Positions 6,700 to 64,000 of a stretch of DNA of 64,000 nucleotides are shown here, piece after piece. The DNA lies in assembly GCA_964519415.1 (NCBI GenBank), contig CAZFJM010000003.1:5668-69667 (forward strand), given 5' to 3'. The notes below the pieces were generated by a model. It made no database searches and was not told where the DNA came from. It saw only the letters and a program-made list of their open reading frames with translations. This DNA comes from Candidatus Woesearchaeota archaeon. Its GTDB lineage: Archaea > Nanobdellota > Nanobdellia > Pacearchaeales > GW2011-AR1. A program made the position numbers and the translations under genes. Every line of letters begins with the position of its first letter. Within the stretch, counting starts at the first letter, position 1.

Positions 6700-6792
6700 A
6701 AATATTCATAGAAAAATAACTTTATATTCGTGTCGGTTACATTCCGTAACACTTATATATCTCCTAGTCCTTTAAAATATTGAGAGGTTAAA

Positions 6793-8024: not shown

Positions 8025-8025
8025 A

Positions 8026-8096: not shown

Positions 8097-8187
8097 ATTA
8101 ATATTCTATAATTTGAATGTTTTTTAAACGTTTGTTCTTGTTCATTTATCTATAAAGATTTATATACATTATTTATCTAATCAAGAT

Positions 8188-8718
8188 ATGGTTTCAGAAC
8201 AGGTGATTGTGATCGGTGTTTTTTCAATAGTTATTCCAATTATATTAATTGCACTAGGTCTTTTTCTATATTCAAAAACAAAAGGAAATATTAAAATCTT
8301 GCTTGAAAGAACTCAATTTTCACCAGGTGAAACAATAAAAGGCAAGATCCATTTACAAGCAAAAAAGCCAATAGAAGTAAAATCTCTAAACGTTACTCTT
8401 CGGGGTGTAATGAAATCATCACCTTCTTCTATTACTATTGGTGGAAGTAATAAGCAAAAGAATAAAGAAAAAGAAATATTTTCTTTTAATCAACAAATCT
8501 TCGGTGTAAAAAATTTCACCATAGGAGAATCTGATCATTCTTTCACGATAAAGATACCTGCAAATGTTTTAAAGAATGCAGAGGGTTTTGCAGGAGCCTT
8601 AGTAAACACTATAAAATTAATAAGTGGAGACACAAGAAGCGTCTACTGGTATGTTGATGCAAGATTGGATATTCCTGGTTTCGATTTATCAGATAGAGTT
8701 CAGATAAATATTGTTTAA
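8188..8718 (+). CDS. membrane-anchored hypothetical protein, possibly Spo0M/arrestin-N-like
   Basis: N-terminal TM helix (IVIGVFSIVIPIILIALGLFLY) then a beta-rich domain. Family assignment is weak. Confidence 0.3.
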   Translation: MVSEQVIVIGVFSIVIPIILIALGLFLYSKTKGNIKILLERTQFSPGETIKGKIHLQAKKPIEVKSLNVTLRGVMKSSPSSITIGGSNKQKNKEKEIFSFNQQIFGVKNFTIGESDHSFTIKIPANVLKNAEGFAGALVNTIKLISGDTRSVYWYVDARLDIPGFDLSDRVQINIV

Positions 8719-8720
8719 TT

Positions 8721-9707: not shown

Positions 9708-9813
9708 AAATAACCGACTCTTAATCCATATAAAAACTTTTTGAAAGTATATTCTCTAAAATATATATTGCCTGGGTATTTATCCTTTTAAACGGCTTAA
9801 TTTATATAAATCA

Positions 9814-48990: not shown

Positions 48991-51264
48991 ATGGAAAAGA
49001 GGTATATAGCGTGGCTATCGGAGATTTCTAAAACAGACGTTCCAATTGCCGGCGGTAAAGGTGCTAATCTAGGTGAAATGTATAATTCTGGTTTCCCAGT
49101 TCCTCCTGCATTTGTTGTAACAACAAACGCGCATCATTATTTCATGGAAGCTACTGGCTTAAAAGAAAAAATTAATCATCTTCTTTCAAAAATTAATATT
49201 GAAGATACAAAGCAACTAACTGACAAAGCAAAAGAAGTTAGAGATTTAGTTATAGAAACAAAAATGCCTGAAGATTTAAAGCAAGAAATAACAGAAGCAT
49301 ACGATAATTTTAATGTAGACTTAAACGAAATGAAAGCAGCACCTGATGCACTTGCAATTATGAAAACAGCAAGAGAATCTATTTTTGTTGCGGTTCGTTC
49401 ATCTGCAACAGCAGAAGACTTAGCAGAAGCTTCATTTGCAGGACAACAGGACAGTTTTATTAATGTAAAAGGAAATGATGAATTAATTCAAAAAGTTAAA
49501 GCAGTTTTCGCTTCAGCATTTACAGCAAGAGCAATTTACTACCGATTGAAAAAAGGTTATGATGCCTATGTTGGAATTGCTGCAGTAGTTCAAAGAATGA
49601 TCAACTCTGATAAATCAGGAGTTATGTTTTCAAGAGATCCTGTAAAGCAAGAACACATTTTAATCGAAGCTGTTTTTGGCCAGGGTGAAGGTATTGTTTC
49701 CGGTAGAATCAAACCAGATAGTTATGTAGTTTCAAATGATTTTGACATTGTTAGCGAATCAGTTTCAGAAAAGAAAATAGCAATCGTTAGAGACTCTTCT
49801 GGTATAACAAAATCCGTAACATTAAGTCCTGAAAAAGCTAAGCAAAAAGTTTTGAAAACATTTGAAGTTAAACAATTAGCAGAGTTCGCTGTAAAATTAG
49901 AAAAACATTACGGACATCCACAAGATATTGAATTTGCAATGGAAGATGGTGCAATCTTTATCGTACAAACAAGAGCAGTTACAACTTTAGTTGATAAACG
50001 TGGAGATGCAGAGCTATCCGGAAAGATTTTAGTTTCTGGTCTAGGTGCAAGTCCTGGAGTAGGTTCTGGTCCAGTAAGAATTATTAGATTAATGGAAGAT
50101 TTGGATAAGATAAAAGAAGGCGATGTTTTAGTAACTCAAATGACAAACCCTGATATGGTTGTCTCTATGCAAAAAGCTTCTGCAATTGTAACTGATGAGG
50201 GCGGAGTAACTGCTCATGCTGCAATCGTTTCAAGAGAAATGGGTATTCCTGCTGTTGTTGGAACTGATAATGCAACTTCCGTTTTAGAAGACGGTCAAGA
50301 AGTAACTGTTGATGGTACAAATGGTAAAGTATACTTAGGTAAAGCTGAAAATAAGAAAGTAGAAGTTCTTCCTATCGTTGAAACAAAGACAAAGGTAAAG
50401 GTTTTAGTTGACTTGCCAGAATTTGCTGAGAGAGCTGCAAAAACAAACGCTGCTGGTGTAGGTTTAGTTAGAATGGAAGGTATTATTGCAACAAATGGAA
50501 AGCATCCTTTATACTATGAAGATAATGAGAAAATTAATGAGTACCAAGAAGTACTTAGAGCAGGATTTGAAAAAATCGCACATAATTTCATTGGAAAAGA
50601 AATCTGGGTAAGAACTTCAGACATTAGAACAGATGAATATTCTCATTTGGAAGGTGCTCCAAAAGAAATAGAAAAGAACCCTATGCTTGGTTTACACGGA
50701 ATTAGATTCTCATTGAAACATCCCAAGATTTTCAAAGCTGAATTACTAGCAATGAAAGAATTAGCAGACAAAGGACATAAGTTTGGTGTAATGTTCCCTC
50801 AAATTATTTCTTTAGAAGAAGTTAAAGCAGCAAAGAAGATTTTAGAAGAGTTAGGAATGATTGGTCATCCAAATATTAAATGGGGATTGATGATTGAAAC
50901 TCCTGCAGCTGTAATTTTAATTAAAGACTTCTGCCAACAGGGAATTAATTTCATCTCTTTCGGTACAAATGACTTAACACAATACACATTAGCAATCGAC
51001 AGAGGAAATGAATCTGTTCAATATTTATACAATGAATTGGGTTGGGCTGTATTGAAACAACTTTCAAAAGTCATAAGAGAATGTAAGCAATTCAAAGTCG
51101 AAACTTCTATCTGCGGTCAAGCTGCATCCAAAAAAGAGATGGTTGAGTTTTTAGTTGGACAAGGAATTGATTCTTTATCTGTAAATGCAGACGCTGCAAG
51201 AGAAGTTTCTGAATTAGTAAAGAAATTAGAAGACAATCCACCAGCGAAAAAAGTTGAGATGTAA
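48991..51264 (+). CDS. ppsA: phosphoenolpyruvate synthase (pyruvate, water dikinase)
   Basis: GGKGANLGEM, phospho-His segment GGVTAHAAIVSREMGIPAVVG, C-terminal PEP-utilising TIM barrel. 757 aa. Confidence 0.85.
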   Translation: MEKRYIAWLSEISKTDVPIAGGKGANLGEMYNSGFPVPPAFVVTTNAHHYFMEATGLKEKINHLLSKINIEDTKQLTDKAKEVRDLVIETKMPEDLKQEITEAYDNFNVDLNEMKAAPDALAIMKTARESIFVAVRSSATAEDLAEASFAGQQDSFINVKGNDELIQKVKAVFASAFTARAIYYRLKKGYDAYVGIAAVVQRMINSDKSGVMFSRDPVKQEHILIEAVFGQGEGIVSGRIKPDSYVVSNDFDIVSESVSEKKIAIVRDSSGITKSVTLSPEKAKQKVLKTFEVKQLAEFAVKLEKHYGHPQDIEFAMEDGAIFIVQTRAVTTLVDKRGDAELSGKILVSGLGASPGVGSGPVRIIRLMEDLDKIKEGDVLVTQMTNPDMVVSMQKASAIVTDEGGVTAHAAIVSREMGIPAVVGTDNATSVLEDGQEVTVDGTNGKVYLGKAENKKVEVLPIVETKTKVKVLVDLPEFAERAAKTNAAGVGLVRMEGIIATNGKHPLYYEDNEKINEYQEVLRAGFEKIAHNFIGKEIWVRTSDIRTDEYSHLEGAPKEIEKNPMLGLHGIRFSLKHPKIFKAELLAMKELADKGHKFGVMFPQIISLEEVKAAKKILEELGMIGHPNIKWGLMIETPAAVILIKDFCQQGINFISFGTNDLTQYTLAIDRGNESVQYLYNELGWAVLKQLSKVIRECKQFKVETSICGQAASKKEMVEFLVGQGIDSLSVNADAAREVSELVKKLEDNPPAKKVEM

Positions 51265-51282
51265 AAAAATTAATTCTAATTC

Positions 51283-51810
51283 TCAAATCTCAACTGCAAC
51301 TTCATTTCTTCTGAGAAATGGAACTGTCCAAGGGGAATTGTATCTCATCAAAAAGGGGTAAGACTTTGGCTTTATCTTATTTTCTTTTAAGGTGCCTATC
51401 AACTCATTTTGTAAATTTATTACTTTGCTATCTGAAGCAAAACCAGAAAATCTCAGTACAGCAAGATTTCTTGACTTTAGAGTTTCTATCTTAACATTGC
51501 CAGAATTTGGCTTAGGAAGTGTCTTGAGAGTATAACTTGATGGCATTACAAAAGACATCTTCATCTTATTCTTAGAATTACTAGTTATTACTGGTGCAGT
51601 CATAGGAATTTTTTCAGAAGTTATCACGGGAGCAGTCATAGGGATTTTTTTGCTTGAAGTATTGTCTCCAAAGATATAATTTGCAATTCTCATAAAAGCT
51701 TCATTATCATTTAAATCTCCTTCCGTAGATGCTAGAATCATACTGCCATATTTTCTTAACTCAATATTACCTATCTTCTTTACTACCTCATATTTTGGTG
51801 TTTCTACCAT
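51283..51810 (-). CDS. SOUL/heme-binding-protein-family protein with an internal 12-aa tandem duplication
   Basis: N-terminus VETPKYEVVKKIGNIELRKY and KIPMTAPV motif resemble SOUL family (recalled). KIPMTAPVITS occurs twice in tandem. Confidence 0.45.
   Translation of the reverse strand: MVETPKYEVVKKIGNIELRKYGSMILASTEGDLNDNEAFMRIANYIFGDNTSSKKIPMTAPVITSEKIPMTAPVITSNSKNKMKMSFVMPSSYTLKTLPKPNSGNVKIETLKSRNLAVLRFSGFASDSKVINLQNELIGTLKENKIKPKSYPFLMRYNSPWTVPFLRRNEVAVEI
51583..51654. repeat. two diverged 36-bp in-frame tandem repeat units inside the SOUL-like CDS
   Basis: Unit 1 51583-51618 and unit 2 51619-51654 are ~27/36 identical. Confidence 0.7.
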
Positions 51811-51866
51811 CCTTATTCTAGGTATTATCCAAATTTAAATCTATCTTCTCTCACTCGAAACTCTGG

Positions 51867-51891
51867 TTTACTCTAAAATTATTATGTCTCT
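51867..51891. repeat. 25-bp direct repeat, copy A (intergenic); copy B at 52642-52666
   Basis: tttactctaaaattattatgtctct vs tttactctaaaattataatatctct (23/25). Copy B is the last 8 codons plus stop (RDIIILE*) of the 52643..53758 gene, read on the minus strand. Confidence 0.75.
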
Positions 51892-51966
51892 AGAAAAAAA
51901 TAACTAAATTATATTTTGTTTAGTCGCAACGAGATGAAATCGAGTTACACAGAAAAAAGTTGAGAA

Positions 51967-52602
51967 TTAACGTCTTTTGTAATTATCTATATCGTCTGCC
52001 CACAGGCATTTAATAAGACTGCTTCCCTGTTTTTCTTCAGGCAAAATAGGCGGTTCTGGTTTTAGGTGTGAAAAATCTCCAAGTTGTTTAAGTGCTCCAA
52101 GAGTTTCTCTCCTAAATACTTGATAAAGTTCTTTTCGTGTCTTTACTGGAAAATATTCTTCCATTTGGTCCTTCACATAAGAACCTTTCTCGTCTATTTT
52201 AGTTGGATCAACTAGTTCTCGGATAACTAAAACGGCGTTTTCTCCGGGTCTAACTCCAATTGTCCAATCAAACCATCCTCCATAAGGACAAACTCTTTCA
52301 CCACGTTTTTTCACCATAATACTTTGAGGTACCATTCTATGTAAACTGAGACTTGCTTCATAACCTCCATTTGTTTCTTGATTTTGAGAAAGAAACGGTG
52401 AAAATCCCCAGCCTCGCTCATGAATCCGATCATAGGTTTCATCAAGACGTTTTTGATAGTCTAGACCTACCCATTCTCTCAAAGCTTTAACTTGTATAAT
52501 ATGGATTATTTTAGTTATGTCCATTCCATTCTCTTCTAAATAGTCTTCTAATTCTTCTTGGTTCATTTTTAATAGAATTCTAAGGTTATTCTTTACCAAC
52601 AC
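51967..52602 (-). CDS. hypothetical protein, 211 aa, bracketed by the 25-bp direct repeats
   Basis: ORF track. GC slightly above background by eye. No family recognised. Confidence 0.4.
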   Translation of the reverse strand: MLVKNNLRILLKMNQEELEDYLEENGMDITKIIHIIQVKALREWVGLDYQKRLDETYDRIHERGWGFSPFLSQNQETNGGYEASLSLHRMVPQSIMVKKRGERVCPYGGWFDWTIGVRPGENAVLVIRELVDPTKIDEKGSYVKDQMEEYFPVKTRKELYQVFRRETLGALKQLGDFSHLKPEPPILPEEKQGSSLIKCLWADDIDNYKRR

Positions 52603-52641
52603 CTCTAAACACTTCTAATACTTGTGGATTTTAAATCTTTC

Positions 52642-52666
52642 TTTACTCTAAAATTATAATATCTCT
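52642..52666. repeat. 25-bp direct repeat, copy B (3' end of the methyltransferase gene)
   Basis: See copy A at 51867-51891. Confidence 0.75.
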
Positions 52667-53758
52667 TCCAATATACTGTTTCTCTCTAGATTCCTTTATA
52701 GGCATTGGAACTTTTTCATCTAATTCATAAACTCTCAATCCTGTTGCAGTTACAATTCTATGAACACTAACACAATATTTTCTAATAAAAGGCATTGTTA
52801 AAACAATCTTTGCATTTGGTGTTTTCAATTCTTTCATTCTTTTTAAAATTGGAATAATTAGTTTTTCAAATTCAGCTATATATTCCGGAGCATCTCGTTC
52901 TCTCATTTTTTTTCTAACAAGTTCTCCCAGTGCTGGTTCTGTTGCAACGCCATTAATTCTAGCGGAAGGGAATCTAATAGAATCTCCAATATTCAATCTA
53001 GCTCTTCCTTTTACATCATACTTGGATTTTAACCATTCAATGTTTTGTTTAGCGCCAGTAATTGCATATCTGTCTTTATCTCCTCCAATGCAATTTATCC
53101 CCCTCAAAATAGCTTCCTGAACAATTACTCCAATTCCACAGAATGGGTCTGCAAGTAATTCTCCTTCTCTAACTTGAGACAGATTAATCAAAATTTTAGC
53201 AAGTCTAGGTGAAATAGCTAAAGCCTCTCTTCTAACTGGTTTATGCATATCTCTTTCTTTAACGTCTTTGTAAGAATAATTTTGTTCTATTACTCCAAAA
53301 TAAATTGTTTTTTGATTATTATAGTAAAAGAATTCAACATCTGCATGAGTAAATTCAAAGTCATCTCCTTCTTGCATTTTTATTCTACCTCTGCTATGTC
53401 TAACTTGTGCTTTAAGTTTTTCTGCTTTGAATTTTTTCTGAAACATCTCTTCAATTTCCTCAACAGTTTCTTCGTCGCCATTTCCAATAACAGTATAGTT
53501 AAATTTTCTTTCAGGAGCAAAATAATTTTCAATATAGCTTTTCAAATCTTTATTTGTTTTGATAGTATTAGCTTTTGCAATTTTCAAAACCCCTCCAAAT
53601 TCTTGTACATTAAATTTTATAGCATCTGCAACAGAAAGGACTAGGTAATTAGTCTCAAAAGATAAAATTTCATACGCAATTCCGTGGCTTTTCAAGTAAG
53701 ATATGACTTCCGCATACGATAAAGTAGGGTTTCTACCTAACAGAAAAAAGTATTCCAT
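52643..53758 (-). CDS. putative RNA (tRNA guanine-N2) methyltransferase, UPF0020/Trm11-like
   Basis: LADPFCGIGVIVQEAILRGINCIGGDKD is the SAM-binding motif of the Trm11/UPF0020 RNA methylase family. N-terminal THUMP-like region. 371 aa. Confidence 0.45.
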   Translation of the reverse strand: MEYFFLLGRNPTLSYAEVISYLKSHGIAYEILSFETNYLVLSVADAIKFNVQEFGGVLKIAKANTIKTNKDLKSYIENYFAPERKFNYTVIGNGDEETVEEIEEMFQKKFKAEKLKAQVRHSRGRIKMQEGDDFEFTHADVEFFYYNNQKTIYFGVIEQNYSYKDVKERDMHKPVRREALAISPRLAKILINLSQVREGELLADPFCGIGVIVQEAILRGINCIGGDKDRYAITGAKQNIEWLKSKYDVKGRARLNIGDSIRFPSARINGVATEPALGELVRKKMRERDAPEYIAEFEKLIIPILKRMKELKTPNAKIVLTMPFIRKYCVSVHRIVTATGLRVYELDEKVPMPIKESREKQYIGRDIIILE

Positions 53759-53823
53759 ATTTTATCCAATAATTCAATGGTTATAAACATTTTGAATAGT
53801 TTTTTAAATCAACCTTTCATGAA

Positions 53824-53985
53824 ATGTTTATGATAAAGAAAAGATTATGTCCTGATTGCAAGAAAGAATTTGATTTTGACACTTTAGCCCATTTCAAAAA
53901 GAAATACTGCCCTGCTTGTTCTAAGGAAAGAAAAAAGGCATACGAGAGTATTCATGAAATTTCTATTGAAGATTGCGACGATTAA
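53824..53985 (+). CDS. small Zn-ribbon protein, 53 aa (absent from the ORF track)
   Basis: Own translation MFMIKKRLCPDCKKEFDFDTLAHFKKKYCPACSKERKKAYESIHEISIEDCDD. C4 ribbon. Overlaps the 3' end of the MATE gene by 4 nt. Confidence 0.3.
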   Translation: MFMIKKRLCPDCKKEFDFDTLAHFKKKYCPACSKERKKAYESIHEISIEDCDD

Positions 53986-55400
53986 ATAATTTTTTTATCT
54001 TTCCACTTTCCATCTCTTATATATAGCCAGGAAACTACTGCAGTAAGAACATTAGATATTGGATACGCCCACCAAATTCCATTTATTCCCATTGAAGTAT
54101 ATTTAGAAAGAATGAGTGCAAACCCAAACAAGAAAACAAGAGATATAATTGACAAGTCCATAGACTTCTTCATATTTCCTGAACCATTCAGCGTTCCATT
54201 TATTGCCATCTGAAGACCTATAAAACCAAATGTTAATGCCATTGCTTTTACATAATAAACACACTCAGCAATTACTTCTATCTGTCCAGGAACAAATACA
54301 GTTACCATTTCTTTGGCATAAACAAAAAACAACACTCCGAGCAAGGTCAATGCAGTAAAGGAAATCCATATTCCTGCGTTGGATATTTTTTCCGCTCTTT
54401 CTAATTTTCCAGCACCAATATTTTGCCCAACCATTGTGGAGATAGCTGCAGAAAAACCTACTGCCGGAACAATAACCAATGCTAGCACTCTGACGCCAAG
54501 CCCGTAAGCTGCAATTGAAACTGTGCCAAAACCAGCAACTAAAAAAGTTAAAACAAGCATATTTACTGAACGCATAGATTGGCTAATTGCAGGAGGGATG
54601 CCTAAGTGAATTATTTTTTTGAAAATTGACCATATAGGTTTTATTTCTGCTAGATGCATCTTAATTCCTTTCTTTCCATCTAACAAAATAGCAATTCCAA
54701 TAAAACATGAGATTGCTTGTGAAATAACTGTAGTCCATGCTGCTCCTGCAACACCAAATTTAGGAATGATTCCCCAACCTAGAATAAATATTGGATCTAA
54801 AAAGAAATTCAAAATGACTGAACCTAGGACTAAATACAGTGGAATTTTGACCTCTCCAACACCCCTCATTAAAGATTGAAAGGCCAAATAAACATACGTA
54901 AAAACTAAACCTATAAAAGAAATTTGTAAATATTTTACTGCATCGGGAATAATCTCTGCGGAAGCACCCATTATAGAAATCATAAAATTAGAGGTATAAT
55001 ATCCGACTATACTCATAAAAATAGAAAATAAAAAAATTATTGAAATTGTTTGTGTGGAAATAAAATTAACTTTTTCGTGATCTTCTCTACCTTTATGTTG
55101 GGAAATAAGTGTTGACCCTGCAATAGCCAAACCTCCTCCAAAAGAAGTAATCAGAAAAAGAACCGGCCAGCTTAAAGAAATAGAAGCTACAGCATTCGCA
55201 CCCAAACGACCAACCCAGAAAGTATCTGTTAAACTGTAAATCATTTGTAAAAGCATTGCAAAAATTATTGGCAAAGATAAGAAAGTTAATGTTCTTAAAA
55301 TAGGCCTATGTAAGAGATGATTTTGCTCTGCAATTTTTTCTCCGATTTCGCCAGCAATTTTTGGAGGAACATTGCTATCTGTTAGAATCTCTTTTTTCAT
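53982..55400 (-). CDS. MATE-family efflux transporter
   Basis: 12-TM-type profile, 472 aa, N-terminal RPILRTLTFLSLPIIFAMLLQMIYSLTDTFWVGRLG typical of NorM/MATE. Confidence 0.75.
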   Translation of the reverse strand: MKKEILTDSNVPPKIAGEIGEKIAEQNHLLHRPILRTLTFLSLPIIFAMLLQMIYSLTDTFWVGRLGANAVASISLSWPVLFLITSFGGGLAIAGSTLISQHKGREDHEKVNFISTQTISIIFLFSIFMSIVGYYTSNFMISIMGASAEIIPDAVKYLQISFIGLVFTYVYLAFQSLMRGVGEVKIPLYLVLGSVILNFFLDPIFILGWGIIPKFGVAGAAWTTVISQAISCFIGIAILLDGKKGIKMHLAEIKPIWSIFKKIIHLGIPPAISQSMRSVNMLVLTFLVAGFGTVSIAAYGLGVRVLALVIVPAVGFSAAISTMVGQNIGAGKLERAEKISNAGIWISFTALTLLGVLFFVYAKEMVTVFVPGQIEVIAECVYYVKAMALTFGFIGLQMAINGTLNGSGNMKKSMDLSIISLVFLFGFALILSKYTSMGINGIWWAYPISNVLTAVVSWLYIRDGKWKDKKII

Positions 55401-55487
55401 TATAGCATTTGCTTTAGAAGGTTAATAAAGGTTTAGAGAAGAATTAGTTTTAGAAGAAGATATAAACTCATTCTAATATTTGATTGT

Positions 55488-56363
55488 ATGGAAATTCATT
55501 TAGCTTCAATGGAGAATATCACTTGCTGGGCATTTAGAAAACTATGTCTTCCTGCAACAGATTCTTATACAGGCGTATTAAGTTTGACTAATCTAATAAA
55601 GAGATCAAATATATGGGAAGAAATAGATACTTTCAAAATAGAAGGACAAAAACAATGGATTCAAGTTGCAACTTCAAAAGAAACCGAATGTTTTTCATTT
55701 ATTAAAAAATTAGAAGAGGAAATAAAAAACCATCCCGAGAAAGATAATGTTTACGGAATTCAACTAAACGCAAGCTGCCCTTCACCAAATTTAATTAGAA
55801 TTGGACAGGGCCCTGCTTTGATAAAGCGAGTAACTAAAGTTTGTAATCTAGTAAAAGAATTGTTAAAGCAAGATAAGTTTAAAGTAGGAATAAAATTAAG
55901 GTTAGGTTTAAATGAAATGGAAGTAAGGCAAGGCAAAGTCATTACTTTGTTAGGAGAATTAGAGAAGATTGCTAAAGATAACTCTAATTTTACAAATGTA
56001 ACTATTCATTTTAAACATGCTCAAGAATCTTCTTCTGCAAAATACGACTATTCTATGATTAATGAAGTAGCTTCCTTCAACTTACCTCTAGTTCTTAATG
56101 GTGGAATAAACAATTCTGAAGATGCAAAAAAATTAATGGAAATGATTTCTCCTGAAAATAGAAAAAACATCAAAGGAATAATGATTGGTAGGGAAGCTCT
56201 TAGAAATCCTGATTGCTTTTCAGAAATAGATTCTGAAATTAATAACTCTTCAAATAAGAATAGAACTCAAAAAGAAATTTCTTCAGAATTTGAAAATCTT
56301 TGTAAAGAACATAATCCAAAACCAATTTATTTATCTACGATTAAAGAACGAGTTAACGTCTAA
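55488..56363 (+). CDS. tRNA-dihydrouridine synthase-like TIM-barrel protein
   Basis: LASMENITCWAFRKLC (LAPM..vTD..FR.LC-like) and IQLNASCPSPNLIRIGQGPALI (iDiNmGCP...G.GaaLl-like). Confidence 0.5.
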   Translation: MEIHLASMENITCWAFRKLCLPATDSYTGVLSLTNLIKRSNIWEEIDTFKIEGQKQWIQVATSKETECFSFIKKLEEEIKNHPEKDNVYGIQLNASCPSPNLIRIGQGPALIKRVTKVCNLVKELLKQDKFKVGIKLRLGLNEMEVRQGKVITLLGELEKIAKDNSNFTNVTIHFKHAQESSSAKYDYSMINEVASFNLPLVLNGGINNSEDAKKLMEMISPENRKNIKGIMIGREALRNPDCFSEIDSEINNSSNKNRTQKEISSEFENLCKEHNPKPIYLSTIKERVNV

Positions 56364-56412
56364 AAGTTAAATTCCAAATCTTTAAAAACCGACAGAAACA
56401 TTAAGATTCAAC

Positions 56413-56563
56413 CCCCTCATAGCTCAATGGTAGAGCACGCGGCTGTAGGTTACTAGCATGGACATACCCTTTCGGGTTAGGATGAGATGCGATAAGATTG
56501 TATTCGCTAGAATATGATGTCAGCAGGACCCGTGTTACCCCGGTTCGATTCCTGGTGAGGGGA
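56413..56563 (+). tRNA. tRNA-Tyr (anticodon GTA) with ~80-nt intron at the canonical 37/38 position (intron ~56449-56528)
   Basis: Hand-folded. Acceptor CCCCTCA/TGAGGGG with archaeal/eukaryal Tyr-type C1-G72; D-arm GCTC-AATGGTA-GAGC; anticodon stem CGCGG/CCGTG; loop CT-GTA-G then intron; T-arm CCCGG-TTCGATT-CCTGG (one C.U mismatch); discriminator A. Confidence 0.7.
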
Positions 56564-56564
56564 T

Positions 56565-56579
56565 GTCAGTTTTTCTGAC
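56565..56579 (+). other. perfect hairpin GTCAG-TTTTT-CTGAC two nt after the tRNA-Tyr 3' end
   Basis: Read directly from sequence. Possible terminator or att-associated structure. Confidence 0.5.
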
Positions 56580-56689
56580 AATTCCCTAATTTTGGAGAGT
56601 TAGAGCAGAAAAAACTCCTTCCAACACCTAGAAAATTTCTTTTTAAACCCTCCACTTTGCTTATAAGGATTTTATGCCAAAAAGGTAAA

Positions 56690-57892
56690 ATGGAAGATAC
56701 ACTACTGGCAACTTGGAAGGAAACAAAGAAAGAATTAGAAATGAGGCAAGGCCAACATTGGAAATTGCTTTATGGTTTTCTACTAGATATGGAACTAGGT
56801 CTAAATGTACCAAAAGGTTCTTCTGGATCTAGAAGACCTGCAACACTTTTAAGACTTTCAAGATGTCTAACAACTGTTTTTAATTTAATGAATGGCAGAG
56901 TTTTAGAAATTACACAAAGAGAAATCCATGAGCTATTCAAGAAAATGAAAGATGGAGACATTAGAAAATCAAATGGCACACCCTACCAAGACGTATCTGA
57001 GTTTATTAAAAATGCTAAAGTATTTTATGGCTGGATGAAAAGAACTAAGCAAATTCCTGAAGACATAACTCAAGATCTTTCTATGTCTGCACATAAAGGA
57101 GGAAAACCCAACTGGGTTTATTTAGGAAATGATAAAATGAAAGTACTAATAGATAACGCAAGAGGAGACTATCGGGCTTTAATGTTATTCTTATATGATT
57201 CGGGACTTAGACCTCAAGAAGCTTGGAAAATAAAGGTAGAAGACTTTTCAGAAGACTATACTATTCTGACAGTTTTAGAAAAAAGAAACGGAGAAAGAGT
57301 CAGCAAGACATTTGCAAGAACAATAAAATTAATGCAGTCTTCACAACTGATAAAAGAATTTGTAAAGTCTAAAAAACTAAAGCCGGAAGATTATCTAATA
57401 GATATTGAGCAACATGCTTTTAATTCTTACTTAAAAACAATAGCTCTTAGATATTTTGGGAATCCACAGATAGGAGATAGGGGAAAAATAACATATGACG
57501 ATACTTCAACAAAAGCCAGAGCAAAATTATCAAACTTTAAACTTTATGATATAAGACACAACTCAGTTTGTTATTGGCTAGACAAATACAAAACAAATAA
57601 AGATTTGATGTATAGATTCGGTTGGATAAGAGAAGATAAAATATTCTACTATTCAGAGTTCTTAGGCAAGAGAGATACTATCGGCGAAGATGATATGTTC
57701 ACAAAAGAGGACAAAACAAAGCTAGAGTTAGAAATAGAAAGAATGAAAAAAGAGAATGAACTCATAAAGAAATATCTACTAACCGTAATTCAAGAAACCG
57801 AAAAACAAAACCAGATATTTAACTCGCAAAAGACTCCTGTTCTCCTTTATAAAAAAATAGAAGGGCAGGAGGGGGAGAATTCTTTTTCTTGA
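56690..57892 (+). CDS. tyrosine recombinase / phage-type integrase
   Basis: Catalytic-domain-like motifs GLRPQEAW (Arg I), YDIRHNSVCYWL (R-H box), C-terminal Tyr-rich segment (IFYYSEF). ATG at 56690 chosen; track start 56657 is TTG. Confidence 0.55.
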   Translation: MEDTLLATWKETKKELEMRQGQHWKLLYGFLLDMELGLNVPKGSSGSRRPATLLRLSRCLTTVFNLMNGRVLEITQREIHELFKKMKDGDIRKSNGTPYQDVSEFIKNAKVFYGWMKRTKQIPEDITQDLSMSAHKGGKPNWVYLGNDKMKVLIDNARGDYRALMLFLYDSGLRPQEAWKIKVEDFSEDYTILTVLEKRNGERVSKTFARTIKLMQSSQLIKEFVKSKKLKPEDYLIDIEQHAFNSYLKTIALRYFGNPQIGDRGKITYDDTSTKARAKLSNFKLYDIRHNSVCYWLDKYKTNKDLMYRFGWIREDKIFYYSEFLGKRDTIGEDDMFTKEDKTKLELEIERMKKENELIKKYLLTVIQETEKQNQIFNSQKTPVLLYKKIEGQEGENSFS

Positions 57893-58109
57893 GTTCTTTA
57901 ATCAATCTCTCTAGTTCTTCGTATTCATGGTAATAGCTAAGCTTATACTGAAATTTTGCTTGTTTTTCTTTTAGTTGATAAAAGCTAGTATAGAAATCAG
58001 ATTTTAATCTTAACACGCTCCATGCTCCAACTTTTTCATCATAAGCGAGTTTGCCAGTCGCCTCTATTACTTTTCTAGGAACTAATGCTTTGTTTGTTTC
58101 CAAGGTCAT
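57819..58109 (-). CDS. hypothetical protein, 96 aa
   Basis: ORF track; 3' end overlaps the integrase 3' end by ~74 nt. Confidence 0.25.
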   Translation of the reverse strand: MTLETNKALVPRKVIEATGKLAYDEKVGAWSVLRLKSDFYTSFYQLKEKQAKFQYKLSYYHEYEELERLIKELKKKNSPPPALLFFYKGEQESFAS

Positions 58110-58151
58110 TGTGTGTGAATCAACTCTTTTTCACATCACCACTTATTATTT

Positions 58152-58778
58152 TTAGAAAAAATCTTTATATTCGCTTTTTATATCTTGAAAATCTTGCTTA
58201 TTTAAATCAAATTTTGCACCAGGAGCATTATTCATATTATTAACCGCTTCTGTAAATTGCTCGTCAGTGAATGGAGTAAATCCTACTTCTTTGCAAATCT
58301 CTTTAATCTCTTGAGTTATTTTTTCTGCTTGTGATTTATCATCTGTTATTTTTTCTGCTTCAAAATAATTAAGAGATTTTGATTTTACTAAAGCAAATTC
58401 TATTCCTTTATAATCAAATACAAACGTTTTTGTTGCCATAACTACTCCGCAATTCCAGTCTAAACATTTCAAAAAGTCAACAGATTTGTCAAAATCTTCT
58501 AATCTAATAGGGATAAGAATTTCTTTTCTACTATCACTACTTCCCCATTCCCCATATTTCATAACTAATTCTGCTTTTTTGTTAGTAACTCTTATTCGTA
58601 AGTCTACTTTTTCAGATTTTATGTCCGAAACATCATTACTAACACTTCCCCTAAAATAAATTAAAGAGAATCTATCTTTTTCTTTTTCAAAAGTAGATAT
58701 TTTATGGAATCTTTCTAATACCTTATCAAAATCTCCATTAATCTTGCCACGAACTTCAACCTCTATTTGATCTACCAT
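58152..58778 (-). CDS. CYTH-domain (triphosphate tunnel metalloenzyme)-like protein
   Basis: N-terminus IEVEVRGKI and alternating charged beta-strand pattern (DLRIRV, ILIPIRLED) resemble CYTH/CyaB-like domains. 208 aa. Confidence 0.4.
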   Translation of the reverse strand: MVDQIEVEVRGKINGDFDKVLERFHKISTFEKEKDRFSLIYFRGSVSNDVSDIKSEKVDLRIRVTNKKAELVMKYGEWGSSDSRKEILIPIRLEDFDKSVDFLKCLDWNCGVVMATKTFVFDYKGIEFALVKSKSLNYFEAEKITDDKSQAEKITQEIKEICKEVGFTPFTDEQFTEAVNNMNNAPGAKFDLNKQDFQDIKSEYKDFF

Positions 58779-58841
58779 ATTTACACTAAAACTCCCGCAT
58801 TTAAAAATCCTGTGAATTCCTCAGAAATGGAACATATATTG

Positions 58842-59537
58842 CTATTTGGCATTGTTTTCTTTCTCCAATTTTCTTAAGGGTATTCTTGTTAATCCCCAGA
58901 TGTCCTGATATTCTTTTGGAACGTCTTTTTGTTTCCTTAAATAATTAATAGCTTTTTTTAAAATAGGCAAGGACTTGCCCCTCTCTGCGCAAATTCTATA
59001 TGCTTGTAAATTGCAAGGACGAATATTACAATTTTGATCTACGTGCAAAAAGTTAGTTTTATGACAGAGGTCACATTTTCTGTCAAAACAAATGCATCTA
59101 AGTGTTTCAAATTTACCATGTTTAGAAGTATATTTGTTAATGCCCCACAAATAAGAACTTTCTAGCTTAATTTCTCCTAAACTTTTCTTTATTAAATCTT
59201 CAAAGAGGATCTGTGGTTTTCCTTTAAATTGCATTGTTGGCATAGATTCAATAAATCTAGGAGTAATCCCTATTTTGTTAAAATATTTCACAAAATCAGG
59301 AATTTCTAAATCATTTTCGCCGACAAATATAGGAACATTGATTTTAATTATTTCAAAATAATCTTTATATTTATTTATGGCGTTTAAAACTTTAGTAAGA
59401 TCTGCTTGTCCTTTCATTAATTTTTTATTACGAGCATCTAAAGACACTATCAGGGATTTAGGAGATATAATTTTACAGCCTTGGGGAAATAAATTAATAA
59501 ACGGTACTTCGCGAGAGGTGGTTTTAACGGAAAATCA
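58842..59537 (-). pseudogene. C-terminal fragment of a MoaA-like radical-SAM enzyme (N-terminal CxxxCxxC half absent)
   Basis: GITPRFIESMP and C-terminal CDLCHKTNFLHVDQNCNIRPC resemble the MoaA-type C-terminal half. Own extension of the frame upstream of 59447 hits a stop at 59535-59537 after 29 codons with no Cys triad. Track start is GTG. Confidence 0.4.
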
Positions 59538-60078
59538 AGCTCGTAAATTTGAACAAAGATTTACTCAAATGTGTGAAGAGGTATATAGAGAAAGATGCGA
59601 TGCTATTGATAAGTATGGAGTGCAGTCTAATCAAAATTTTTCTTTGCTTAAAATAGAAAAAAATGTTGAAGCGATAGGTAATTTCTTTAAGCAATATCAG
59701 CACTTCTCAAGAAATTCTTTAATAATTGATTTACATGGAGGAGCTTTAGGATTTACAAAAAGAGAATCACAAAGAAAAGATTTTTGTAGTATTGCTGATG
59801 GGTTAGTTACTATTTTTTCAGCAGGAGTAAATGAGGTAGATACCGAAAGTGAAACTTGGCAAGGAAAAATTTCTTGGACAGATAACATTGAAGATGTAAA
59901 TACTATCGATTCTTGGGTTGCTCACAAACTTCCTACAAAAATTGCTGAAGGATCTATGAAGCCTTACGTTAGACCTACTGAATTATCTTTTACTGGAGGT
60001 TATCATTTTACTTTATCTTCTGAAATGAACGAAGGGTTAAGGGCTTACATTGAACCTCTTTTATCTCTTCCAAAATAA
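59377..60078 (+). CDS. hypothetical protein
   Basis: ORF track. 5' portion overlaps the radical-SAM fragment on the opposite strand, so the true start is probably an internal Met. Confidence 0.3.
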   Translation: MAFKTLVRSACPFINFLLRASKDTIRDLGDIILQPWGNKLINGTSREVVLTENQARKFEQRFTQMCEEVYRERCDAIDKYGVQSNQNFSLLKIEKNVEAIGNFFKQYQHFSRNSLIIDLHGGALGFTKRESQRKDFCSIADGLVTIFSAGVNEVDTESETWQGKISWTDNIEDVNTIDSWVAHKLPTKIAEGSMKPYVRPTELSFTGGYHFTLSSEMNEGLRAYIEPLLSLPK

Positions 60079-60161
60079 GAATAGAAAAGGATTTCTTATC
60101 TTCAAAGATATATTTATTGGATTATACAAATGTATTTATATCTAAAAAAAGGCCTATTTTT

Positions 60162-61622
60162 ATGTCAATTAGTACAAGAACTAGTATTGAAGATTTGGAA
60201 AAAATAAAGATAATTCAAGGCGGAATGGGTTTAGGAGTTTCTGGATGGAGACTTGCAAAAAAAGTTTCTAGTTATATTCCTACAGGTTACGATTCTTCGC
60301 CATGTTTGGGACTTATATCTGCTACAGCTCCAGATGTTTTGTTAACTAGAGGATTGCAAAACGGGGATAAAAACGGGGAATTGCGTGAAGCTCTTTCACA
60401 CTTTCCAAATCAGGAGATTGCAAAAAAGATTTATGATAAATTCTTTATTGAAGGAGGTAAGTCTTCTGAGAAACCTTATCGTCTTAATCCCTTCCCCACA
60501 TTTGAAAAAACAGGAGATTTAGAATTTACATTAGCGAGTACAGATTTAGAAGATGTTCTTGTTACGGGTGCATTTACTGAAGTATATCTAGCAAAGAAAG
60601 GGCATACAAATCCTATTGGTGCAAATTTTTTAAATAAAATAGGATTTGCTCAACTTCCAACATTATATGGTGCAATGCTTGCAGGTTTAGATGTTGCATG
60701 TATTGGTGCAGGTTTTCCTAGAAATATTCCAGAAGCAATTTCTGCTTTTGTATCGGGCGAAACAGCTAGGATGGCTCTTCCAGTCAGTGGAAAACCATAC
60801 AGCATAGTTTTTGATCCAAAACGTTTTGGTAAACCTCAACTTCCCAAGCCTATATTTTTAGCAATAATTGGAAATCATTTAGGATTGAGAGGAGTGTCCA
60901 ACGCAGATGGATATGTTTTTGAAGGAGAATTGGCCGGAGGACATAATTTTCCCCCAAGAAGCAAGTCACTTAATGATATTGGAGAACCTTTATTCGGTGA
61001 AGAAGATAAAATAAATTTTGGAATAGTTAATTCAACGCTTTCAAGACGAGTAACTGTTCCTCCATTCTGGTTAGGTGGAAATTATTCCACTAGATTACAA
61101 GAAGCACTTTCACAAGGCGCAGCAGGTGTACAGGTTGGAACTCCCTTTGCACTGTGTAATGATTCCAATGCTCTTCCAGAGCTAAAGCAACAAGCAATAG
61201 AAGAAATATTTAGGGGAACAAAAGTATACACGAGTGCACGAGCTTCGCCAACAGGATTTCCATTTAAAGAATTACCCGTTCCAGGAACAATCTGTACTCA
61301 AGAAGTTTATGAAGCAAGAGAAAGAGTTTGCAATCTGGGATTTTTAGTATCTATTCATGAAGATTCAAATGGTAAATTATACACTAGATGTCCTGCAGAG
61401 CCTGTAAATGCATTCGTTCGCAAAGGTGGTTCACTCGAAGAAACCGTAGGTAGACAATGTTTATGCAATGGTTTATGTTCCACAATAGGGTTGGGTATGC
61501 CTGGAGAAAAACCAATAGTAACTTTAGGTGCTAATGTAGATGCTGTAAAGGATTTAGTCAATAAACATGGAACCGAATACTCTGCCGAGAATGTTATAGA
61601 CTATGTTTTAGGTCATAATTAG
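60162..61622 (+). CDS. nitronate monooxygenase (NMO/2-nitropropane dioxygenase)-family FMN oxidoreductase
   Basis: IIQGGMGLGVSGWRLAKKVS is the NMO N-terminal motif. Later GAAGVQVGT. ATG 60162 chosen within the track ORF. Confidence 0.45.
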   Translation: MSISTRTSIEDLEKIKIIQGGMGLGVSGWRLAKKVSSYIPTGYDSSPCLGLISATAPDVLLTRGLQNGDKNGELREALSHFPNQEIAKKIYDKFFIEGGKSSEKPYRLNPFPTFEKTGDLEFTLASTDLEDVLVTGAFTEVYLAKKGHTNPIGANFLNKIGFAQLPTLYGAMLAGLDVACIGAGFPRNIPEAISAFVSGETARMALPVSGKPYSIVFDPKRFGKPQLPKPIFLAIIGNHLGLRGVSNADGYVFEGELAGGHNFPPRSKSLNDIGEPLFGEEDKINFGIVNSTLSRRVTVPPFWLGGNYSTRLQEALSQGAAGVQVGTPFALCNDSNALPELKQQAIEEIFRGTKVYTSARASPTGFPFKELPVPGTICTQEVYEARERVCNLGFLVSIHEDSNGKLYTRCPAEPVNAFVRKGGSLEETVGRQCLCNGLCSTIGLGMPGEKPIVTLGANVDAVKDLVNKHGTEYSAENVIDYVLGHN

Positions 61623-61653
61623 ATTCAGAATACGCAAGTGGAAAAACAAGTAA

Positions 61654-62337
61654 TTAATTCTTCCAATCCTCAATCAACTTATCTTTCTCTTTTTCGCCAA
61701 TAAACTTTTCTTCAACTAGAAATTGTAAAAACGGAATAACTTTAGTATTTTCAGGAACCTTATCAACCAATTCAATATCAATTAAATCTTCTTCTGAAAG
61801 TGCAGCCATCGTTTCATCAAAAAAGCTCAAAACACTGTCTCTCGTAAAAGAATTCTTCATTATTTCTTCATCGAATGTTTTAGCATATTCTTCGTTTATT
61901 TTCTTTCTAGGCAAATTGAAGTCCTTTCCATCTTTCAAGCCCAAAGAGTCGCTCAAAAATGCCTTAAAATCGAAATTAGGGCAGTTAGAGAAGCAACTTA
62001 TATCCGGAACATCGTCTAAAAACTCCGGATTTCTTGCAACCGGGAAAGCTCGGCAAACAATAGGTCTTTCTTTATGTATAGAGCATTTATTATCTTTCAA
62101 AAAAGGACACGGTTCTTTAGTTAAAACATAACCCGTACAAAAATACTTTCCGCTTTTCTTATCCAAAACAAAATCAATAGGTTCAATTTTAATCTTTTTA
62201 TCGATACCTAATTTCTTAATTTTTTCAACTTCCCATTCAAATAATGGCAAACCTTTAGTGTTGCTATCTTCATCAGAAATCTTTCGACAACATTCTCCGC
62301 AACAAATACACTTAAATTTTAGCCCCATCTCCAACAA
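61654..62337 (-). CDS. YkgJ/UPF0153-type Cys-cluster protein, paralog of 28936..29586
   Basis: CICCGECC N-terminal motif. The EPCPFL and C..FP Cys blocks align with the other paralog. Confidence 0.5.
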   Translation of the reverse strand: MLEMGLKFKCICCGECCRKISDEDSNTKGLPLFEWEVEKIKKLGIDKKIKIEPIDFVLDKKSGKYFCTGYVLTKEPCPFLKDNKCSIHKERPIVCRAFPVARNPEFLDDVPDISCFSNCPNFDFKAFLSDSLGLKDGKDFNLPRKKINEEYAKTFDEEIMKNSFTRDSVLSFFDETMAALSEEDLIDIELVDKVPENTKVIPFLQFLVEEKFIGEKEKDKLIEDWKN

Positions 62338-62543
62338 GGTTTCTCTCCTTTCTTATAGCAAACCCATATTAAAATTATTGTAAATATAGAAATAACTATT
62401 AAATTCTTAAGCCATTCATGATCTAATGTGTTAATACTTATCATAAAAAGAACAACCCAAATTAATAGAGCTAACCAACCTTCCCAACTGCAAGGATACC
62501 AGCCCCAACCATAATGTTTAGCCTTAAACCACAACTTTTTCAT
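62319..62543 (-). CDS. small membrane protein, 74 aa
   Basis: Two hydrophobic helices, Trp-rich. Confidence 0.3.
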   Translation of the reverse strand: MKKLWFKAKHYGWGWYPCSWEGWLALLIWVVLFMISINTLDHEWLKNLIVISIFTIILIWVCYKKGEKPCWRWG

Positions 62544-62616
62544 AATAGATTAAAGAGAAACAGCATTATAAACCTATCATAAATATCCTTATAAACTTCT
62601 AATACTTTATTTATTT

Positions 62617-62937
62617 ATGGAATTGGAAAATATAGACTACATCTCCAAACAATCCAACCCTTCAGAAAGAATTAATCTCAATAAACTTACTCACTATCAT
62701 GGAAAGATCCTCCCTCCTAATTTTTCAAGAGACAAGTTTCTAGAAATTATTCCTGTACAGATTCCTAGTTGTACTTATGGATCTATTCAGCATCATCTCC
62801 CGTTTGGAGGAATTCATCCTAGCTTCGGAAAATATGCAATAGTTCTCAAAGATAAAACTATACAAGTTTTTTCAGATTCAGAATTGGGTGGACAACATTT
62901 AGTAGACTTACTTTATACTCTAGCAGAAAAATCCTGA
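62617..62937 (+). CDS. hypothetical protein, 106 aa
   Basis: ORF track. Confidence 0.3.
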   Translation: MELENIDYISKQSNPSERINLNKLTHYHGKILPPNFSRDKFLEIIPVQIPSCTYGSIQHHLPFGGIHPSFGKYAIVLKDKTIQVFSDSELGGQHLVDLLYTLAEKS

Positions 62938-63033
62938 AAATAATAAGCCTGTTCTTTACGTAAATTCGGGAAAGATTTAAAAAGCAAAAGATTCTAAAGT
63001 GTTCAAAGAAGAGTTCTGTGATAATTTAGAAAA

Positions 63034-63390
63034 ATGAACAACGAAAAATTAATATTATCCGAAATATTGGCAGACGGCGTTTCAGGGAATAAATGGGAAT
63101 TAGAAGCGGGGGGCATAAATGCAAGTTACCAATTAGGAAGACTGGATGATGGTTCTGGAAACAAAATTGTAATTAATAATGAATCTCTCTCTGACACACA
63201 AGGGCGTTTTATGCATTCAGAAGGATCATGGAGATATGAGGATTATGGAACAATTAAAGCGAGATTAGATCCAAGAGCTCCAAAGGATCGCCGTCCGGAT
63301 ATGCTTTTACAGGGTAACTCCGTTTCTCTCTATAAGGGAGACACATTAAGATTTGGAGATGGGTTACGTTTAAATGTAACTTACTTTTAA
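63034..63390 (+). CDS. hypothetical protein, 118 aa
   Basis: ORF track. Confidence 0.3.
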   Translation: MNNEKLILSEILADGVSGNKWELEAGGINASYQLGRLDDGSGNKIVINNESLSDTQGRFMHSEGSWRYEDYGTIKARLDPRAPKDRRPDMLLQGNSVSLYKGDTLRFGDGLRLNVTYF

Positions 63391-63421
63391 TTATTTTCTA
63401 AAATCTTCTAAAGATGAACGT

Positions 63422-63967
63422 CTACTCTTTCAATTCTTTTCTTCTTTTCTTAATATGGGAAATAATATAAGGTAATGAAAACATTAATGCTCCTAGTCCT
63501 GCCATTTGAACAGAAGTTATCAGTCCAATATTAAAATATCCCGAAATATTATCTGTTCTAGCAGTATATTGCGCTACTTCGGGTCTTGTCTCTTCTATTT
63601 CCCTTTTTCTAATTTCAAGTCTTTCCATTAAACCGCTTAAGTTTCCTAGCTGTTCATTTTGAGATGCAACATTCTCTAACTGTACTCTTTCTAGCTTAGA
63701 AACTACCGCTTCAGATCTAAAATTATTTCTATCGAAGTTAAATAAGTAATTTTTTTTAGAATGTTCTATTGCTTCACTTAATTCCTTTGATGCCGGACCT
63801 ATATCCCAATACTCTTTTACAATTTCAGGGGCATTTTTAGCTCTATATCCTACATAATTAAAATGACCCGCAGCTAATGTTGTTGCAGCAATAATGCTAG
63901 CTATTGAAATGCGCGTTCCACACTTACTCATTCTCTCGCCAAATGAAAGCTCTGATTTTTTAATCAT
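63422..63967 (-). CDS. hypothetical protein with C-terminal TM helix, 181 aa
   Basis: ORF track. Coiled-coil-like middle, hydrophobic C-terminus. Confidence 0.3.
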   Translation of the reverse strand: MIKKSELSFGERMSKCGTRISIASIIAATTLAAGHFNYVGYRAKNAPEIVKEYWDIGPASKELSEAIEHSKKNYLFNFDRNNFRSEAVVSKLERVQLENVASQNEQLGNLSGLMERLEIRKREIEETRPEVAQYTARTDNISGYFNIGLITSVQMAGLGALMFSLPYIISHIKKRRKELKE

Positions 63968-64000
63968 TAATTCTTGCGCTTCAGTAGAATGTCCTTTAGA

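Follow-up and report, generated by a model that had tools for sequence, protein, structure and literature searches.

A probable hot-spot for integration behind an intron-containing tRNA-Tyr gene of a DPANN archaeon

Introduction

When a gene for a tyrosine recombinase lies directly behind a tRNA gene, the question arises whether the two mark one end of an integrated element and, if they do, how much of that element is left. We ask this of a 64,000-nucleotide stretch of DNA from Candidatus Woesearchaeota archaeon (NCBI GenBank assembly GCA_964519415.1, contig CAZFJM010000003.1, positions 5,668 to 69,667 of the forward strand), here called the window and numbered from its first letter, in which a first-pass annotation had noticed an intron-containing tRNA-Tyr gene followed by an open reading frame (ORF) with recombinase motifs. 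From the window and a set of related loci (L001, L004 and so on), we consider it probable that the 3' end of this tRNA-Tyr(GUA) gene is an integration hot-spot in a DPANN archaeon and that an integrated element, decayed and probably immobilised, is present in the window. The features at the centre of this proposal, including the putative left attachment (att) site, attL, and the recombinase gene (int, encoding the integrase), are as follows.

56413..56448, + strand: tRNA-Tyr(GUA) 5' exon, positions 1-37, with C1 and the anticodon GTA at 56445-56447 (Rfam and sequence parse)
56449..56528, + strand: tRNA-Tyr intron, 80 nt, position 37/38, relaxed bulge-helix-bulge (BHB) motif (sequence parse, ARAGORN with introns, comparison with relatives)
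56529..56563, + strand: tRNA-Tyr 3' exon, positions 38-73, with G72 and discriminator A73, CCA not encoded (Rfam and sequence parse)
56549..56564, + strand: putative attL core TTCCTGGTGAGGGGAT, made up of the final 15 nt of the tRNA and the next nucleotide (repeat in L028 with 1 mismatch in 16; equivalent in L004, 15/15)
56565..56589, + strand: post-tRNA segment, a hairpin at 56565-56579 and then ATTCCCTAA at 56581-56589 (comparison with L004)
56661..56666, + strand: TATA-like box TTATAA, 24-29 nt before the integrase ATG, positioned as in 9 relatives (comparison)
56690..57892, + strand: integrase, 400 aa, a tyrosine recombinase, ATG 56690 to TGA 57892 (motifs, PHROG, homologues, model fold)

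Results

The tRNA gene and its identity

The Rfam model RF00005 matches the tRNA at 56413-56563 (+ strand) with 44.9 bits, against a gathering score of 29, over the full model (1-71), and the match is interrupted in the anticodon loop by an insertion of ~80 nt. ARAGORN with default settings reported only a tRNA-Trp and a tRNA-Ile in the window and missed this gene; with introns allowed it returned the identical 151 bases under the label His(gtg), i(35,80). The Tyr/His ambiguity arises because the junctions read AG|G (5') and GA|C (3'), which permits two different 80-nt excisions. In archaea C1-G72, A73 and the lack of G-1 are features of tRNA-Tyr and the opposite holds for tRNA-His, in keeping with recognition by TyrRS and HisRS, and the gene, as read from the sequence, has C1-G72, A73, a C at position -1 (no G-1) and a 4-nt variable loop. 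With the junctions placed for Tyr, C32-U35 (CUGU) pairs with GCAG of the intron to give a 4-bp central helix adjoining the anticodon stem, with the 3-nt bulges A36 G37|G (5') and G A|C38 (3') beside it, which is the canonical geometry of an archaeal 37/38 intron. ARAGORN labels the homologous genes of L001 and L004 as Tyr, and in both the central helix is kept (ACAG or GCAG) together with the 3' and 5' bulges. The His(gtg) identity was rejected on the grounds of C1-G72, A73, the absence of G-1, the bulge geometry and the Tyr label in L001 and L004. We therefore read 56413-56563 as a tRNA-Tyr(GUA) with a 37/38 intron and predicted splice sites, in agreement with the first-pass annotation, which had folded it by hand and ended it at 56563. 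The inner helix (h') of the intron is weak (U-A, A-U and C-G plus a mismatch), giving a relaxed BHB; such a motif would suit the endonucleases of broad specificity described for ultrasmall archaea (PMC3239211). Nine related tRNA-Tyr genes carry a homologous intron, with compensatory changes in its internal hairpin.

The perfect hairpin GTCAG-T5-CTGAC that had been pointed out behind the tRNA is present at 56565-56579, but it is unremarkable, occurring at chance frequency (111 perfect hairpins with a 5-bp stem and 5-nt loop in the window) and not being conserved: L004 and L001 have a T-run without the hairpin. A terminator scan of the window did not call it. The T-run followed by ATTCCCTAA (TTTTTCT..ATTCCCTAA) stands directly after the tRNA both in the window and in L004, whose element is bounded by att repeats, and is absent from the loci that lack an integrase; we take 56565-56589 to be the putative tRNA terminator plus an arm derived from the element.

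A divergent tyrosine recombinase

The integrase ATG lies 126 nt after the end of the tRNA on the same strand, close to the distance first noted, and the identification as a tyrosine recombinase is borne out by residues, profile and fold. The motifs GLRPQE, IRHNS and YY are all found in the ORF, although YY occupies residues 320-321 of 400, followed by a long C-terminal helix, and not the C-terminus as had been thought. In an alignment of 32 homologues R174 (GLRPQE), K206, R289-H290 (DIRHN), W312 and Y320/Y321 are invariant and Y286 is near-invariant, and the catalytic residues R-K-(H/Y)-R-(H/W)-Y stand in order as R174, K206, Y286, R289, W312 and Y321. PHROG integrase families match the protein (E 3.6e-9). 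The Pfam profile PF00589 (Phage_integrase), the check that had been recommended, aligned the first half of its domain alone at 24.8 bits, below the gathering threshold of 27.1; this was the sole Pfam match at E <= 10, so that Phage_int_SAM was not detected. There are more than 190 homologues, most of which have a precomputed PF00589 match. NCBIfam models for XerA, XerC and XerD scored 31-37 bits against cut-offs of 220-335 (the XerA equivalog NF040815 37 against 220), which marks the protein as not XerA. An AlphaFold model (predicted local distance difference test, pLDDT, 85) has the two-domain fold of core-binding and catalytic domains, and in Foldseek it matched XerA, Cre, Tn1549 Int, lambda Int and XerH with probability 1.0 over 310-370 columns at 9-16% identity. 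Judged from sequence and model, 56690-57892 encodes a tyrosine recombinase that is complete but highly divergent and has YxxR where HxxR would be expected. The box TTATAA, 24-29 nt before ATG 56690, argues against an upstream TTG start and suggests that the integrase mRNA is leaderless.

The gene has been under strong purifying selection, with a ratio of nonsynonymous to synonymous substitution (dN/dS) of 0.06 relative to L005 (integrase 91% identical at the aa level) and of 0.04 for ORF96, the small gene that follows it, at dS ~0.8-1.2. In L037 (94% DNA identity), a 100-nt deletion in int has removed residues 313-346, including the catalytic Y320/Y321, and shifted the frame; the gene is therefore dispensable and not core. 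The end of the integrase, …LLYKKIEGQEGENSFS (57819-57892), is conserved in the closest homologues only.

Relatives of the integrase follow tRNA genes and lie in att-bounded elements

The retrieved loci of archaeal type with upstream sequence, the window included, were examined with ARAGORN (introns allowed) and Rfam. In 10 of these 12 loci a tRNA on the same strand ends just before the integrase gene, and the tRNA is of six identities (Tyr in three loci, Met and Asp in two each, Gln, His and Glu in one each).

tRNA-Tyr: window; L001-3 (60% identity); L004 (57%)
tRNA-Met: L011, L016
tRNA-Gln: L012
tRNA-His: L013
tRNA-Glu: L015
tRNA-Asp: L034, L036

The archaeal-type loci L008 and L018 have no same-strand tRNA before the integrase, and neither do five loci from metagenome-assembled genomes labelled bacterial. 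From the end of the tRNA to the integrase ATG there are 55-58 nt in 8 of 9 relatives and 78 nt in one, a spacing that is near-constant whatever the tRNA (L001, L004, L011, L012, L015, L016, L034, L036), and across these relatives a TATA-like box stands at a fixed distance, 24-33 nt before the ATG. The 126-nt gap of the window reflects an extra insert of ~69 nt that it has in common with L005.

In three relatives the 3' end of the tRNA is repeated on the far side of the integrase gene, which is itself not cut: 15 nt with the copies 5.7 kb apart in L004 (tRNA-Tyr), 20 nt and 8.3 kb in L011, and 14 nt and 7.8 kb in L016. The DNA between the repeats encodes an 848-aa archaeo-eukaryotic (AEP) primase and a resolvase in L011, an MCM-like helicase and a resolvase in L016, and in L004 an HNH match and ORFs of no known family, with no primase or MCM match. 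By their sequence these are small integrative plasmid-like elements whose target site, attB, is a tRNA 3' end. The view that the tRNA-int pair is a signature of integration, proposed for the window at the outset, is favoured by these relatives.

The genomes with integrase relatives are labelled Woesearchaeota, Pacearchaeota and Nanoarchaeota/Nanoarchaeia; together with the thermosome gene and the archaeal-type tRNA-Tyr, these labels point to a DPANN host for the window. Homologues at 25-47% identity, with no same-strand tRNA beside them, also occur on contigs assigned to bacterial bins (Actinomycetes, Kuenenia, Planctomycetota and others), namely L009, L010, L014, L017, L019 and L035; the last of these holds many transposases as well as three other integrases. 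These could reflect spread across domains or mis-binning. We found no description of the integrase family in the literature, in a search that did not extend to the survey of DPANN mobile elements by Wu et al. 2024, so that a prior description is possible.

The DNA behind tRNA-Tyr differs among strains

A comparison with related genomes for the presence or absence of the DNA after the tRNA had been suggested, and it proved informative. A scan of metagenomes for the last 22 nt of the tRNA returned seven contigs with an identical 22-mer, and by tblastn the integrase is absent from all seven. In one of them, L029, the left flank is syntenic with the window (a methyltransferase and MatE, 79-81% DNA identity), and the tRNA-Tyr is followed after 258 nt by the sequence of window 60135-60171 and then by a CxxCxxCC gene (85% aa identity). 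In L028, where the tRNA is identical and the flank 92% identical, the sequence of window 60097-60164 follows 600 nt after the tRNA. The promoter sequence at window 60097-60171 is thus reached within 258-600 nt of tRNA-Tyr in both. In L031 and L032, whose tRNA is 98.7% identical, other genes follow, among them in L032 a Fic-like ORF by our reading of the sequence. All compared loci diverge 1-4 nt past the discriminator base. Since homology with L028 and L029 resumes at ~60090-60097 and the divergence begins 1-4 nt after the discriminator base, the segment from 56565 to ~60090 is strain-specific and apparently inserted exactly at the tRNA 3' end, and it is polymorphic among strains at 80-94% DNA identity.

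L028 also carries TTCCTGGTGAGAGGAT 568 nt after the TTCCTGGTGAGGGGAT of its tRNA, with 1 mismatch in 16 and similarity out to ~24 nt (repeat pair CGATTCCTGGTGAGGGGATAGGATTT / CGCTTCCTGGTGAGAGGATAGGAATTT, 568 nt apart). This att-like repeat lies a few tens of nt before the junction, at an estimated chance of ~1e-5, and seems to be the footprint of an earlier integration followed by decay. A degenerate candidate in L029, CACTGGTGAGGAGC (11/16), was within chance by our estimate and was not used as evidence.

Contents and boundaries of the block

The strain-specific block continues behind the integrase as follows.

57819..58109, - strand: ORF96, small conserved protein (homologues, dN/dS)
58135..58139, no strand: inner boundary of the int+ORF96 module (L005 homology ends at 58139; the L037 contig ends at 58135)
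58152..58778, - strand: CYTH-domain protein (class IV adenylate cyclase/triphosphatase-like) of the strain-specific block
58842..59447, - strand: MoaA-like fragment, 201 aa, MoaA positions ~120-270 (truncated gene)
59377..60078, + strand: 233-aa ORF without family match, last gene of the strain-specific block
60079..60097, no strand: right junction; homology with L028 and L029 resumes at ~60090-60097 (local alignment)

The int and ORF96 genes are convergent and overlap by 74 nt. ORF96 has a mean column identity of 84% and is 75-93% identical across its homologues, which were found only on contigs that are apparently those of the closest tRNA-Tyr-linked integrase homologues, with P0122/L037 as an additional contig. 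It gave no Pfam, PHROG or NCBIfam match, and its structure model has a pLDDT of 42.8. In L001 a DUF1284 gene lies between int and ORF96. Homology with L005 spans 56597-58139 and is followed there by NDK instead of the CYTH gene, showing that the block is composite. The MoaA-like fragment lacks the N-terminal radical-SAM cluster region, and its break is overlapped by the unrelated 233-aa ORF on the opposite strand.

Several neighbouring genes also differ. A Dus gene (tRNA dihydrouridine synthase, 55488-56363) lies between MatE and tRNA-Tyr in the window, L037 and L032 and is absent there in L029, and L001 has an unrelated 173-aa ORF at its position; variation thus extends to the DNA upstream of the tRNA. 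On the other side, an NMO-like gene (486 aa from 60162; window 60097-61622) is 25% identical to a shorter NMO at the same position in L029, while ~75 nt covering its promoter and start match L028 and L029 at 89-91% identity, so that it looks like a replacement behind a conserved promoter. Further downstream, a block of thermosome, 167-aa and 461-aa genes (64088-68239 equivalent) lies 7.5 kb from tRNA-Tyr in the genome of the window; it is seen in L020, a contig identical to the window (JGI 3300045131, Ga0485169_0000092) that adds 4.8 kb, to coordinate 68778. In L004 the same block (5414-9853) is directly upstream of tRNA-Tyr in the opposite orientation. The two arrangements are consistent with an inversion, in either direction, that had one breakpoint at the tRNA/int locus.

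Discussion

Based on the layout conserved among the relatives and on the comparison of strains, we put forward a hypothetical course of events for this locus. By analogy with lambda and with pNOB8-type integrases, the integrase would recombine the attP site of a small circular element with attB, which would be formed by the last ~15-24 nt of the tRNA gene, namely the 3' strand of the T arm, the acceptor stem, the discriminator base and 1-9 nt beyond. The crossover would fall within the 3' exon, downstream of the intron, and the element would supply a replacement 3' end so that the tRNA and its intron remain intact, while the integrase gene, preceded by a TATA box of its own, would come to lie directly downstream of the tRNA. 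We infer that the copy in the window arrived in this way and that attR, the right-hand att site, and the replication genes were lost later, whereas int and ORF96 would have persisted as a module that stayed functional in the lineage of the window, as the purifying selection suggests, with decay beginning in its sister strain L037. The absence of attR and of replication genes makes this a defective island at a hot-spot and not a demonstrably complete element.

Several observations weigh against an integrated origin and must be set beside it. The repeat of the tRNA-Tyr 3' segment that the first-pass annotation expected farther on did not materialise: a search with exact k-mers as short as 11 nt on both strands shows no direct repeat of 12 nt or more from the tRNA 3' region in the window, a repeat search within 50000-64000 found no attR, a second copy of the 16-mer TTCCTGGTGAGGGGAT is missing from the window at up to 3 mismatches, local alignments around 58139 and, at the right junction, around ~60090 reveal nothing att-like, and attR is likewise absent from the L020 extension to 68778, ~12 kb past the tRNA. 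The GC and skew profile shows no shift, with GC at 0.31-0.35 across the block. Apart from int, the block has no gene for replication, partition, transfer or virions in Pfam, PHROG or NCBIfam, its cargo consisting of the CYTH protein, the MoaA fragment and the 233-aa ORF. The comparison of strains leaves the direction, insertion or deletion, to be inferred, and strains differ on either side of the tRNA (Dus absent in L029; NMO gene 25% identical). Even in L001, with 60% aa identity and syntenic upstream genes, int lies beside tRNA-Tyr, and long vertical residence would give the same pattern as repeated integration. Finally, a scan of IMG/VR viral contigs and tblastn searches of the PLSDB plasmids and the INPHARED phages all failed to bring up a homologue of the integrase, so that the free form of the element is not known.

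Part of this evidence could be read in the opposite sense, namely that the element is complete and still mobile and that its attR is very short (<11 nt), diverged or beyond the sequence seen. The integrase is indeed intact and under strong selection, the arm on the attL side resembles that of the att-bounded element of L004, the att cores of relatives are as short as 14-15 nt, and the block is polymorphic among closely related strains. Nevertheless, the right junction, as located from L028 and L029, is at ~60090, where nothing resembles an att site, the repeat searches stayed empty as far as 68778, the genes beyond 64 kb include core genes such as the thermosome, and the block lacks replication genes of the kind found in L011 and L016; we hold a mobile element to be quite unlikely. 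The low dN/dS of 0.04-0.06 would also suit a domesticated module, in which the host keeps int and ORF96 beside tRNA-Tyr for a cellular role such as gene capture and shuffling or the inversion of segments. The pair is kept in the lineages of the window, L005, L037 and L001 in front of differing downstream genes, ORF96 is more conserved than the housekeeping PPDK (87% against 78.5% identity relative to L001), the thermosome block has opposite orientations relative to tRNA-Tyr in the window and in L004, and integrase-driven chromosomal inversions in archaea are discussed in PMC8371274. Against this, the module is absent from several close relatives with the same tRNA, int is inactivated in L037, other members of the family reside in att-bounded elements, two of the three with a replicase (primase or MCM-like), and the window has no inverted att copy. 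Domestication therefore appears decidedly improbable.

A core XerA-like resolvase of chromosome dimers that adjoins the tRNA by chance is the explanation to which we give hardly any credence. XerA is the best match in the PDB by both sequence and fold (5hxy) and has the same two-domain fold, and int is conserved after tRNA-Tyr in three lineages, but the identity is 15-16%, no Phage_int_SAM domain was detected, and the homologues follow six different tRNAs and have att repeats. The explanation is contradicted by the equivalog score (37 bits, where 220 are required) and by the presence and absence data, since this strain-variable, tRNA-linked gene is missing from the seven contigs that share the tRNA 3' end and has lost an internal part in L037.

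How this element compares with known archaeal systems depends on the integrase. As reviewed in PMC8371274, pNOB8-type (type II) integrases (She et al. 2002/2004) have a gene that is whole after integration, an att site in a tRNA gene and not within the ORF, and the motif R...YxxR...Y; SSV1-type (type I, 'suicidal') integrases have attP inside the ORF, a gene that is split on integration and the motif R..KxxR..Y (PMC8371274). The integrase of the window resembles the former, with an intact ORF, att outside it and R174...Y286-D-I-R289...Y321, and is unlike the latter in its intact ORF, the YxxR motif and an att site upstream of the gene. The box LYDxR, common to the integrase and pNOB8 Int (NC_006493, 20720-22039), is the only visible shared one, and the two have no significant similarity (BLASTP E 0.67; probability 19% in hhalign). 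We rejected a place in the pNOB8 sequence family, which calls for an identity of 30% or more across 60% or more of the length and for an N-terminal Phage_int_SAM domain (Badel et al. 2021, PMC8371274), as the protein falls far below those values and no Phage_int_SAM was detected. The elements of the relatives (5.7-8.3 kb) also differ from the 41-kb conjugative pNOB8 plasmid, and the host is a DPANN archaeon as against Sulfolobales. The preference for pNOB8-type over SSV-type integration expressed in the first-pass annotation thus stands for the mode of operation, in which the integrase appears pNOB8-like, and fails for its sequence.

Targeting of tRNA genes is common to SSV1-type elements and to Thermococcales and Methanococcales plasmids (pT26-2, pTN3; PMC7253208, PMC6972569), and small elements there carry primase or MCM-type replication genes, comparable to L011 and L016. 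Thaumarchaeal integrated elements have attB in tRNA genes, some of them intron-bearing (Krupovic et al. 2019, cited in PMC8371274). They differ in phylum and integrase family from the element discussed here, whose att core does not include the intron.

Integrated elements at tRNA genes are textbook biology, and the finding is mostly confirmatory: the island is probably an ordinary, no longer mobile remnant of a small tRNA-inserting element. It nevertheless offers a concrete integrase/att pair, with an att core of ~15-24 nt of the tRNA 3' end and a fixed promoter layout, for uncultivated DPANN archaea, a group without genetic tools, and it is a case in which an intron-containing tRNA serves as target while the intron stays untouched. 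It should also be noted that the locus is an annotation trap, as default tRNA finders miss the gene or call it His and the integrase falls below the Pfam threshold, so that automated pipelines would miss the island.

Taken further, the data permit a broader hypothesis, which we put forward tentatively and regard as rather unlikely in its entirety. The integrases would belong to a recombinase family that has not been described before, spans the DPANN archaea and targets tRNA genes. Its layout would be rigid, the tRNA 3' end being followed by ~57 nt that include a TATA box and then by a leaderless int. The family would mobilise mini-plasmids of 6-8 kb with primase or MCM replicases, and in the Tyr lineage int and ORF96 would have been retained under selection without attR. 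Were this true, a domesticated module would keep the flank of tRNA-Tyr open for gene turnover or would drive inversions, for example that of the thermosome block.

The intron and its surroundings

The position of the intron next to a recombinase recalls the tRNA-Thr of Caldiarchaeum, where a recombinase-bearing insertion adjoins an intron-containing tRNA with tRNA-derived fragments nearby, and for which a model of intron gain by integration was proposed (Sugahara et al. 2012, PMC3293823). The loci L031 and L032 resemble it in having an intron-like fragment downstream of tRNA-Tyr. Among the compared loci we found no sign of an intron travelling with the element as in that model; the same intron occurs in loci without an integrase, and the att site covers the 3' exon only.

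The T stem (56541-56557) contains a C.U mismatch (CCCGG/CCTGG) that is common to all tRNA-Tyr of the clade, with perfect CCAGG/CCTGG stems in L004 and L030. Within the intron, the core GCAUGGAC-[variable hairpin]-UAGGAUGAGAUGCGAUAAGAUU (window 56456-56503) is conserved in nine tRNA-Tyr introns. An Rfam scan of the intron and of its downstream copy matched no family. To judge by its sequence, the GCAU/AUGC helix of the core beside tandem G.A/A.G has a look like that of a kink-turn (K-turn). A free-standing copy of the core lies just 3' of the tRNA in L031 and L032, which lack the integrase (in L032, read on its reverse strand, ~50-105 nt after the tRNA, and likewise in L031). As a side branch of the broader hypothesis, recombination at tRNA flanks may move intron RNA modules, of which the free-standing K-turn-like core in some strains would be an instance.

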